Below are positions 21,601 through 25,608 of a stretch of DNA of 64,000 bases, piece after piece; within the stretch, counting starts at the first letter, position 1; the number at the start of each line of letters is the position of its first letter. The notes under the pieces were generated by a model. It saw nothing but the letters and a program-made list of their open reading frames with translations. It had not been told where the DNA came from and made no database searches. The translations under genes and the position numbers were made by a program. Location: the NCBI GenBank assembly GCA_965285935.1, contig OZ260661.1, forward strand, positions 55,924,001 through 55,988,000, read 5' to 3'. Source of the DNA: Ophelia neglecta. Taxonomy: Eukaryota.

Positions 21601-24600
21601 TCAACACCAGCCAGCCGTCTCAGTGCTGAATGCTATCTCGAGTGTGGCATGCGTCTGCTAAATTATACACTGCATAATTAACCATGATCATTTCATTTTC
21701 CTCCGAGGGTAGGAAGAAGGTTCTAGTAGTGTGCCAGGAGCATCTTGCTTGTGATATTACATGAACTTTGTCTTACAAGCAATGGCAAATCATGAAATGA
21801 TGACATAGCACAACAACAAAGGCAAACCTATTGTATTTAATTCCATGTATCTTAAGATTGAATTCCCTGGTGACTAGCTTTCTCTGATGAATTTCAAACA
21901 TTCATTCACTGAAAAAATTTGTCTTTCTGACATGTGTTGACCATAGAACATTACCTTATATTGTGCCGGGTGTAATTATTTTGCACCAGAGGCAAGGAGG
22001 GGTACATAATGCTTAAGGTGTTTTCATAGAAACTATGGTCACTGATTATGGACAAAAAATGCCCATACCAACAAAGGTCACCATGTCAAAACACTTCCAT
22101 GAGAAAATAACAATGCCATTCTATATATACTGTACATCACAACAAATGCTGGTACTTGGTAAGTTGTGCGTTAAATAAAGGAATTGATTTCAATACACAC
22201 AGAAGTCCAAAAAAGAAATAAACATTTTCTAATATACATGTACATGTACATGTATGCCATAAGAGTGGCCAGTCAGGCAAAGTATGCATTCTAACTAAAC
22301 ATGACATGCAAATTCATCTACATACATGTACATGTCTACATAGAGAATCCTCTAAACAGCCAAATGGACATTCCACATAGCGTTTCTTTTGTGAAGGTTG
22401 TCATGCCATGGAAGATACAAACATCCACCATGTTTACTAGTAATCAATTATGATTTCTTTTGGAACCTTATTTCTCTTTGCAAAGTTCATAAATATTTCA
22501 AAACCAATTTTGACTAACCTGACAAACTTGTACTCCCCAGCATGGTTGAACTGCTGCTCGTAAAAACCTTTCTTCTGAACAGGCCCACTGTTAAATCCCC
22601 CAATGACCGACTTATATTGTTCTCCATCATGCACAACCTATAAAAAGGAGGAAATAGTTTTGTAGCTTAAAGTATATTGCTCAATGTTCATGTACAAGAT
22701 GCTTACTGCTTGTCATATTGAGTTGGGTTTTAAAATCTATCCTTATTGGAAGGATTTTTTTCTAGATTCATCTTTTTACTCTTTTATACCTTAGTTGCTA
22801 CTAATAATTACAGTAGGATGTATACATAATATAGTGACTTAATGCCTCTTTCTACTGTTCACTTACAACCTATATTGTATCATATATTGGTAATTTACCA
22901 CCCTATAAATGGTGGACCCATTTGAAATTTTTTTGATTATGTTCAAACGAAAAATTAATAACCTGTATTTTAAATATAGCTGCCGAAAGAATGATTTAAA
23001 TCTAGAAGATCATTATTCAAAACTTCCATGCTTATAATGTAATTATTGTCCAAAGCACCCAGTCACCTCTTTCAAGCTACCAATTGGTTGAGAATCACTA
23101 ACAACTCTTGATGTTTTAAATCATTGAAATCAGTTCATGTTTTTATTTTCCATCAATATTTGATGTTTTTGGAAGTGACAAGACTTTACATTGTTAAACT
23201 GATAGAAGATAAATATTTGCATACCTGTGTAACATTGAAGCCTTTGTTTTCTTGGTCCCACCACTCGTATGTAACAACCTAGGAATATCACAATTTCATG
23301 TTATTACCTTGATTTTTTAACCCTTCCAATGAAGGAACTGGGTGTACATTCAACCAAATTCTTTGTTTTCTAGTGACAAGTTAAACTTTATTTATTTCCT
23401 ACATCATGGCCACATGTGCATGTATGCTTTGAGTTAAATAATTATGATGTACTCTTCTCTTTTAAATGTTGACTTTTTAATCTAAGGTATAGAGGACCAT
23501 TGCTTAATTACCTGTCCTTCACAGATCTGGATGTGTTGCAAGGAAAATCCTGTTTTTGTAATCGCAACCGTACATGCACTTTTTCTACCTGTAAAACAAA
23601 CAAAAATTTACATTTATCTGAAGTAGATGTGCAGAAAACAAACACTATTCAACTTCTAAAGAATGTTTGTTTAGCTAAACAGATTATGCTACCAACCAAA
23701 CACAAGTTTTTTGGTCAATTCCTTTGTGCCTACAAGGATTCTTTTGATATCCTTTGAGGTGTAGGAAACTCCTAGAGAATTTGATTCTACTGAACTATCT
23801 GTGTCTGTGAAGCCACTGCTATCACTTTCTTCAGTGCTAGTTTCCGTGGTATCCCTAAATGGGTTATCTCTGCCAAACTCATTAAAAGCCTGATCACCAG
23901 GAGGAATAATATCCTCATGTTCACCTCCTGGTATTTCTGATTGGGTTGGGGTTTTTGCCTTCTTGGATGTTCCTGAACCCATAATTATAATTACAAACCA
24001 GTCAGGTATTTTTTCTAGTATTTGATATGAAAACTTTTCATATTAACTTAGAATTATTTCCCTTTCATTCCGATGACAGCACACACACACGAGGCCTATG
24101 GTATAGCTATGAAGTTGGACATTGCCTTTTGTAACTAACAACATACTGTCATAAGTGTTTTTTCTGTCATCTCCTTAACATCACTCACCTTCTTGATTTA
24201 TAGATATCTTTTTCATAAGAATACTTTTTAGTTACAGGTAAAGATGTACTTGGAGTGTGGCGATATTTCAGTTTGGCACACGTTCTGTACTCTACCTATT
24301 TTATGATCAGTTTATAATATATTTGAACTCCCTGGTCTCTGAAATTTGATGAAGTCAAGTTTCCTCAGACATACAGTATGTACACGTATCAACTAGATGT
24401 CATTCATCTACCATTGTAAGACATAGATCTTAGTACTGATGCAATATCAAGTTTCTCAATTGCAACTCAAATCTCCAATAACTAGTGTATTTGTCTATAT
24501 AAATCATTTTCTTATATCTCCATTGGGGCTGGCCTTTTTATTTCACAAATCAAAATGTCTTAACTAGTTATTCTTTCAACTTTGCCTGCGGAATCTTTAA

Positions 24601-25608
24601 ATATTAATATATGGTCAATGTACATGACATTTTATATTGTATATATATGATATTGTGCAAACTACCAGTACAAGAAACTCTTTGGAAACATGAAAAAAGC
24701 AAGGTCACGTCACAGACTCTATTAATCATAGTTGCAGGATTAAGGAGGTACCAAAGTATTAAAACTGAATCTTACCTATCATAAATTTGTAATAATAAAA
24801 TTGTTCAAAATATGCAGCTAAACTCAGACTGTAAACATTTGTAAACAGACCCAAATTTGACCCCTAAATGTAATATTTTCATATATTTATGCTTGTTAAA
24901 TCATGTTATGAATATAGAAGTTGATAGAAATAACATAGAATTTAATGTTAATAGGACTTAAAAAAGTTACCCATTTTCAGTTTTATTACTTTGGTACTCC
25001 TTAAATACTTTTCATTTGTTTAATCAATAAACCTACATGATTAGATTATAATTAAAACACAAAATAAACAGTTTGACCCCCTTCTCCCTGCAGTTTTTCC
25101 GAAGCCAATTCGCAGATTCTAAATTTCCAGACCCTTGTTTACAACAAACAGTAGTGAGAACAAAGCATGGATAGATAAACACATTCAGATCTGATATTTT
25201 CTCATATAAATGTGTAAATTAATATAGGGAATGCATACGGAACGAAACATAATGAGGTACATGTCTCTTTCAACACTACAGGCCTCTACAGAAGGCAGAT
25301 ACCCTTTTAGTTACACATATTCAACATTGAAAGGGTTAATGAAGTTAAAAATACATGTATTACTAATAATTACCTAGAGCTGCTGCTCTCATTTTGCGAA
25401 GTCCTGTTGCTGCGAGGCTGTTGGATTTCAGCGCTGTTTTCCAAGTGCCACTAGTACTACCAGTTCTAGACAGCATTGATGATCGGTTCGATTTGGCTGA
25501 CTGCCGATTGGGGTCGGCTTTGGTCATTTTGACAGACTGAGTTCTCTGGAGCCCAGATGTCCCCTGGGCGGGGGGCTGGTCCTCCTCCATTGATGCTCCA
25601 TTCCCCAT
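612..25608 (-). CDS. Large multi-exon gene (~1,650 aa): N-myristoylation motif, 7 cupredoxin-like repeats, chitobiase/beta-hexosaminidase C-terminal (Fn3-associated) domain, 2 FN3 domains, Pro/Ser/acidic low-complexity tail
   Basis: Phase-consistent GT-AG exon chain: 25608-25374, 23588-23512, 23278-23225, 22637-22519, 18997-18779, 18577-18536, 18061-17975, 17673-17577, 17340-17269, 17144-16952, 16827-16687, 16457-16297, 15963-15847, 14742-14630, 14495-14271, 14040-13953, 13815-13621, 13011-12855, 12668-12514, 11556-11450, 11009-10937, 10691-10566, 10398-10246, 9947-9783, 9357-9261, 6343-6206, 5067-4942, 2585-1560, 1003-612. A cupredoxin signature recurs (e.g. HTIHVTDQGFEPKVVTIHPGDRIWWVW..QHNIIQ..F..GVYYY). 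TPGAIIYYTLDGTAP marks the Fn3-associated domain. VFWDPP..YQVYLNG and IVWMS..IEGYRVYLNG mark FN3 domains. Exons 3' of 6206 are less certain. Confidence 0.85.
4146..4285 (-). CDS. Possible alternative terminal exon of the cupredoxin-repeat gene (DVVERHMPEVE...SLYHL*)
   Basis: Acceptor ttctcacag| in phase 1, open reading to TAG; GC-richer than the flanking intron. Confidence 0.4.
17766..17943. mobile_element. Tc1/mariner (pogo/Tigger-like) MITE, 178 bp
   Basis: TA|CAGTGAAACCTG ... CAGGTTTCACTG|TA: TIRs with a TA TSD. Confidence 0.8.
19085..19368. mobile_element. Decayed hAT-like MITE remnant
   Basis: Right end TGTCAGGCCCTG with two subterminal CGGGCAAGT motifs. The left end is eroded and no TSD is visible. 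Confidence 0.3.
23697..23982 (-). CDS. Alternative first coding exon (MGSGTSKKAK...KKLVF) of the cupredoxin-repeat gene
   Basis: ORF starts MGSGTS. A phase-1 donor (TTT G|gttggt) lies 108 nt from the shared acceptor at 23588, in the same phase as the 25374 donor. The donor is weak. Confidence 0.6.
24744..25000. mobile_element. TTAA-flanked MITE (Kolobok-like), 257 bp
   Basis: TTAA|GGAGGTACCAAAGTATTAAAACTGAA ... TTCAGTTTTATTACTTTGGTACTCC|TTAA: ~25-bp TIR with one indel and one mismatch. Confidence 0.75.

Follow-up and report, generated by a model that had tools for sequence, protein, structure and literature searches.

Does a single gene use two different starts that both carry a lipid anchor, and would the choice between them matter for where its product goes? 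The gene that raises this question lies on the minus strand of a 64,000-nucleotide (nt) stretch of the Ophelia neglecta genome (OZ260661.1, positions 55,924,001 to 55,988,000; the window), is present as a single copy by exon search, and is predicted to encode an intracellular protein of about 3,500 residues with cupredoxin-like repeats, an Fn3_assoc domain and many FN3 domains. Two open reading frames (ORFs) near its 5' end, here called exons A and B, both begin with the N-myristoylation motif MGxxxS and can both join the exon at 23588 (exon C) in phase 1 with an open frame. A first-pass annotation had described them as unrelated alternative first exons with oppositely charged leaders, and it was right about their strand, coordinates, motif and phase. 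We conclude that exon A carries the canonical start, and that exon B is probably, though by no means securely, a used, myristoylated alternative start that is likely lineage-specific. The features concerned are:

25374..25608, minus strand: coding part of exon A, the canonical N-terminus (78 amino acids), which aligns with the leader of the Capitella orthologue and has a conserved junction
25609..25664, minus strand: 5' untranslated part of exon A, beginning at an acceptor at 25664 (position weight matrix score 7.8)
23697..23982, minus strand: exon B, the candidate alternative start (95 amino acids), put forward on its ORF, its phase, simulations and single nucleotide polymorphisms (SNPs)
23512..23588, minus strand: exon C, the first shared exon, which opens cupredoxin-like domain 1 (32 residues aligned to Capitella, 84% identical)

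Exon A (ATG at 25608, 235 nt, phase-1 donor after 25374) aligns to residues 1-75 of the Capitella protein (E = 1e-5), with a score that none of 500 shuffles reached. Capitella and Dimorphilus share the peptide that spans the A-C junction, so the proposed splice from 25374 to 23588 is backed by homology. An in-frame stop codon lies four codons upstream of the ATG and, because of this stop and the conservation, the sequence identifies the exon A methionine as the true start. Splice sites were scored with matrices derived from the gene's own sites (34 acceptors, 36 donors), donors being scored leave-one-out; intronic AGs equal or exceed the score of the acceptor at 25664 in 2.9% of cases. Exon A is therefore the first coding exon but probably does not open the transcript, since the acceptor in front of it implies that a non-coding exon probably lies upstream. 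A candidate non-coding first exon, with a donor score of 6.9, is seen at 33787-33900 (minus strand), roughly 8 kb 5' of exon A. The first-pass annotation had allowed that an upstream coding exon could make either methionine internal, which does not come about easily: the stop codon precedes exon A, and the AG before exon B, at 24014, scores −4.8, for which reason we rejected exon B as an internal exon spliced from that acceptor. In exon A the myristoylation motif is followed by an acidic cluster and, just ahead of domain 1, by a basic segment. This last segment (25374-25445, minus strand) is conserved in Capitella and Dimorphilus ahead of domain 1 and is missing from exon B.

The MGxxxS start of exon A belongs to a large protein family. 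A phmmer search with one exon returned 54 proteins, and profile searches added 30 and then 8 more. The named members are uncharacterised proteins of 3,000-4,000 residues, or partial models of such proteins, from annelids, molluscs, a flatworm, an orthonectid, echinoderms and a hemichordate, and the four that were scanned have many FN3 domains. Two long matches (P0047 and P0094) were judged non-orthologous and left out, and a word-indexed search with one exon against proteins of at most 2,000 residues found no homologue. The closest relative is the Capitella protein, whose alignment with the joined A model spans 798 residues at 65% identity; collinearity runs to the C-terminus, with residue 3595 lying about 17 kb past the window start, and the gene extends about that far outside the window. 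The collinear domain order and sequence orthology make the gene a member of an invertebrate cupredoxin-repeat/Fn3_assoc/FN3 family. Orthologues in Capitella (ELT90741.1), Dimorphilus (CAD5112727.1), Owenia (CAH1782615.1), Ptychodera (XP_070557721.1) and Aplysia (XP_012935394.1) share the MGxxxS start, but they differ from the Ophelia gene in having no second MG start in the models examined.

Taking one model per taxon and excluding partial and duplicate models, we found MGxxxS in 29 of 36 taxa: it is at position 1 in 22, and internal, behind an N-terminal extension, in seven molluscs. The seven models that lack it come from four oysters, two octopods and Intoshia, and their lack of it may in part be a matter of annotation; the octopod models begin right at domain 1. 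Where the motif is present, position 3 is A, S, T, N or C, position 4 is G (23/29), position 5 is A (25/29), position 8 is D or E (23/29) and position 10 is E (19/29), and residues 2-12 sum to a negative net charge in 24 of the 29 and to no more than +1 in any. By these counts MGxxxS is a family trait, and the predicted N-myristoylation is very likely real for the family. To call lipid anchoring essential, as the first-pass annotation did, is an overstatement when seven of the 36 models have no motif and seven more have it internally. Its suggestion of an UNC119-type, small-residue N-terminus fared better, and extends to the family: small residues at positions 3-5 go beyond what the transferase needs and match the high-affinity UNC119 motif of small or medium residues at these positions, as given in PMC6179904. 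The first eight residues of the Capitella protein are identical to those of a GNAT1 peptide listed in PMC8246649. The resemblance to UNC119 cargo (GNAT1, NPHP3, cystin and LCK) consists of the myristoylation consensus together with small or medium residues at 3-5, and the acidic residues after Ser6 resemble those of GNAT1; unlike these cargo proteins, the candidate cargo here would have about 3,500 residues. An UNC119 gene is present in the Ophelia genome (exon at L018:1489-1707, G000:C12), and a second gene of the GMP_PDE_delta family is found on C2.

Exon B (ATG at 23982, 286 nt, phase-1 GT after 23697) has several properties expected of coding sequence. MGxxx[ST] starts are rare, occurring at 5 of 2,792 methionine codons in the six frames of the window. 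When 80 kb of adjacent genome was added (144 kb in all) there were 23 such starts, four of them open for at least 60 codons, and these four are exon A, exon B and two within the gene's own last coding exon. Among 6,000 introns of 1,785 nt simulated with a third-order Markov model of this gene's introns, a chance MGxxx[ST] ORF of at least 90 codons arose in two. Exon B has a GC content of 41%, against 29-33% in the flanking intron, and its start context has A at −3 and G at +4. Variation was taken from three DNA sequencing runs, for which 40 of 58 differences are listed; 5 of the 8 listed SNPs in exon B are synonymous (P = 0.017-0.036), no indel is listed, and the ATG, motif, frame and phase are intact in all three runs. 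These runs behave as DNA contigs with no splice joints and are uninformative on expression. We rejected exon B as a piece of a repeat or transposon, as it has a single match in the genome. Neither ORF has an exact match in the protein collection, and metagenome scans with exon B and an exon-F alignment yielded no locus.

The two leaders differ in charge, and in a way that depends on where one looks. Over the whole exon, A is basic (12 K/R to 4 D/E, +8) and B acidic (11 K/R to 17 D/E, −6), as the first-pass annotation said, but beside the lipid the signs are reversed: residues 2-12 carry a net charge of −3 in A, as in the rest of the family, and +3 in B, which is outside the family range. The layout of exon B is accordingly a myristoylation motif, three lysines and an acidic stretch rich in serine and threonine. 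Substrates of N-myristoyltransferase (NMT) have Gly2, Ser or Thr at position 6, no excluded residue at position 3 and no proline at position 7, and both leaders match this pattern. Positions 3, 4 and 5 hold residues of small or medium size in both (N, G, A in exon A; S, G, T in exon B), as in the UNC119 motif, and neither leader contains a cysteine. No BLASTP alignment was found between A and B, and their DNA similarity score was reached by 265 of 300 shuffles; we therefore rejected exon B as a duplicate of A. The two are thus unrelated beyond the first few residues, yet the first six residues of B fit the family's N-terminal pattern. One of eight comparisons made with B, that of the whole exon with the Dimorphilus leader, gave a score reached by 1 of 500 shuffles, or by 67 of 500 when the first seven residues were removed.

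How exon B would be spliced is less clear, and here lie two points beyond the first-pass annotation: an acceptor at 23972, use of which skips B's ATG, and two donors inside exon B that are stronger than the one at its end. The splice sites in this part of the A-C intron are:

23973..24012, minus strand: candidate phase-1 acceptor upstream of 23972, in codon 3 of exon B (score 5.8)
23892..23927, minus strand: two phase-1 donors within exon B, after 23925 (score 7.3) and after 23898 (score 6.1)
24183..24216, minus strand: the strongest donor of the A-C intron, after 24189 (score 10.3), with a 9-codon phase-1 ORF in front of it

The donor at 24189 may mark an untranslated exon or a third, non-myristoylated start exon, or may be due to chance. 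The A-C intron also contains two dispersed repeats, at 24847-25008 and 25262-25358, each matching many genomic sites.

A number of these observations weigh against our reading of exon B as a used start. The donor at 23697 scores 2.5 in a gene whose real donors range from 1.2 to 12.6; only 1 of these 36 is lower, and 22% of intronic GTs do at least as well. The internal donors at 23925 and 23898 outscore it and are both open into exon C, and they would give leaders of 19 and 28 amino acids. One could accordingly suppose that exon B is a real start normally spliced at one of these sites, making a short, basic, myristoylated leader, with the long acidic part a minor form. This is a sub-case of the explanation we prefer, its likelihood being counted within that of the latter, and taken by itself it is distinctly unlikely: past 23925 the frame stays open for 76 further codons, ending in a phase-1 GT that precedes the stop by two codons; a frame open over this length arose in 109 of 20,000 simulations, which favours translation of the long form, and two of the three distal SNPs are synonymous. 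Another concern is the acceptor at 23972, which is credible (its score is matched or exceeded by 4.8% of intronic AGs, and real acceptors range from 0 to 13.6). It has a 40-nt AG-free zone, a feature of 19 of 34 real acceptors and 55 of 311 background sites, and a branch-point-like motif about 30 nt upstream (5 of 34 and 19 of 311, respectively). Exon B could then be purely an internal cassette (23972-23697, 276 nt, phase 1-1) used after exon A, adding an acidic stretch to the disordered leader, and the ATG-Gly ahead of 23972 would belong to the intron. The frame of A, cassette and C is open (196 amino acids), optional segments occur at the same leader position in Mytilus and Mya isoforms, and motif residues 3-4 could be by-products of the acceptor consensus. 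What makes this very unlikely is that it requires a chance ATG-GG in the pyrimidine tract together with Ser6 and Lys7. In a rough generative comparison the true ATG was favoured over an acceptor with a chance ATG-GG by 15.3 bits, a figure that falls to about 12 once the AG-free zone and branch motif are counted in the acceptor's favour, although some of the position frequencies behind these 12-15 bits were set by hand. An alternative first exon in the strict sense has no 3' splice site in front of it, whereas A has 25664 and B has the candidate 23972. Hybrid use of exon B as both a first and an internal exon, a concept described in 10.1101/2021.05.27.446076, is possible and would be compatible with our preferred explanation.

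Comparative and population data also count against a used exon B. Among the listed SNPs it is more polymorphic than A (8 in 286 nt versus 1 in 235 nt), three of its eight change a residue, and five of the eight fall within 47 nt and perhaps represent one haplotype. We found no homologue of exon B among the family proteins examined and no isoform set with two different MG starts, the annelid comparison comprising three gene models only, and the case for B as judged from sequence rests on the genome of one species. Exon B might thus be a chance ORF or an unused, decaying relic, for example of an old duplicate of the start exon, with isoform A the only one made; its weak donor, its high listed SNP density, the failure to find a homologue and the lack of RNA support would all be expected. 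We nevertheless consider a relic unlikely, given an ATG, motif, frame and phase intact in three DNA runs, the excess of synonymous changes, the rarity of such an ORF by chance and the absence of the likeness to A expected of a duplicate. It is possible, if still somewhat unlikely, that both starts are used as tissue- or stage-specific promoters and that the flanking charges are functionally neutral. A basic PKA peptide is treated as fitting the UNC119 motif in PMC8246649, so the same carrier could serve both leaders; against neutrality, the acidic cluster is conserved in the family and the +3 of exon B falls outside the range seen there.

In our preferred explanation, the canonical start in exon A would give a predicted N-myristoylated giant cupredoxin-repeat/FN3 protein. 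A separate promoter within the A-C intron would drive exon B, which would be joined to exon C at 23588 via 23697, possibly also via 23925 or 23898, keeping the myristate and swapping the family's acidic cluster for an adjacent lysine cluster. Isoform A, with myristate, acidic residues and no cysteine, would be a weak membrane binder alone and would travel as UNC119 cargo like transducin-alpha, plausibly to cilia. Isoform B, with myristate and lysines 7, 8 and 10, would have a two-signal anchor for direct binding to acidic membranes, and would forgo the annelid-conserved basic segment at the end of exon A. That the two isoforms amount to a localisation switch is a tentative proposal, and a doubtful one. 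As both leaders fit the UNC119 motif, and a basic peptide is treated as conforming to it, the carrier may, by analogy, take both. If the proposal is true, two isoforms that share the lipid but not the second signal would offer a natural experiment on how flanking charge sorts myristoylated proteins into carrier-mediated and direct membrane binding. Apart from exon B, what matters here is a giant protein family with a strongly conserved UNC119-type N-terminus, found from annelids to hemichordates. It is a speculative and rather unlikely extension that the family as a whole is UNC119-delivered ciliary cargo, with A's promoter routing the scaffold to cilia, B's routing it to the plasma membrane, and molluscs toggling the anchor. 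Matches to the X-box (RFX) motif offer nothing in its favour: such sites occur at chance level in our scans (50 matches versus 78 expected, and 6 versus 5.96), and we rejected these scans as evidence for cilia. Some 1 kb upstream of exon A, at 26577-26589, a 13-bp X-box-like site with one mismatch overlaps a donor-like site (26582); within the window such a site is not above chance. Literature searches found no mention of six family gene identifiers, although proteomic tables may list the proteins under other identifiers, and nothing relevant joining the family's domains with cilia.

Alternative N-terminal exons that alter membrane targeting have precedents. In c-Abl, the alternative exons 1a and 1b turn the myristate on or off. 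Src is an example of an anchor made of myristate and a basic cluster. Alternative first exons are common, according to PMC13082882, and in NADH-cytochrome b5 reductase alternative promoters switch myristoylation on and off (PMC2289487). The likeness of the Ophelia gene to c-Abl and the reductase is that of one gene with alternative N-terminal exons, but those genes switch the myristate on and off, whereas here both starts would keep it and the neighbouring charge would change. A pair of starts that are both myristoylated would differ from the type already known, and a thin literature search of titles and abstracts found no description of one. The on/off type seems to be present in mollusc orthologues: the motif is at position 1 or internal among Mytilus and Pecten RefSeq isoforms, which suggests, from the models, that forms with and without the extension act as an on/off myristoylation switch. 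In the seven mollusc models with an internal motif, the extensions that precede it are long and acidic. The principle of the two-signal anchor, myristate plus a basic cluster, is set out in PMC8003949. Exon B likewise has lysines beside its motif; unlike these anchors it has only three of them, followed by a strongly acidic stretch, and may have a weak second signal.

Downstream of exon C, the rest of the gene within the window is arranged as follows:

12855..23278, minus strand: 16 more exons, encoding cupredoxin-like repeats (in the joined A model the frame is open to residue 797)
6206..12668, minus strand: exons covering the CHB_HEX_C_1/Fn3_assoc domain as well as the first of the FN3-like repeats

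Pfam scans of exons from 23588 down detected CHB_HEX_C_1/Fn3_assoc (E = 7e-8) and, in 1 of 10 exons scanned, a sub-threshold match to Cupredoxin_1 (E = 0.012). Conserved His and Cys columns are present, which may or may not correspond to the ligand set of a type-1 copper site. In the AlphaFold model of the Patella orthologue (725 amino acids, mean pLDDT 81), residues 1-58 are disordered (pLDDT below 50) and are followed by beta-sandwich repeats. Its best Foldseek matches are factor VIII and ceruloplasmin, with TM scores of about 0.1, so the likeness to ceruloplasmin and to factors V and VIII is at the level of domains only; the protein described here differs from them in being predicted to be intracellular, in its domain arrangement, and in that copper binding is only putative. 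None of the five homologues scanned has a transmembrane-like segment (19-residue hydropathy maxima of 1.3-1.9). Near the window start, at 1559-2585 (minus strand), a long low-complexity coding stretch rich in proline, serine and acidic residues can be seen by eye between FN3 blocks.

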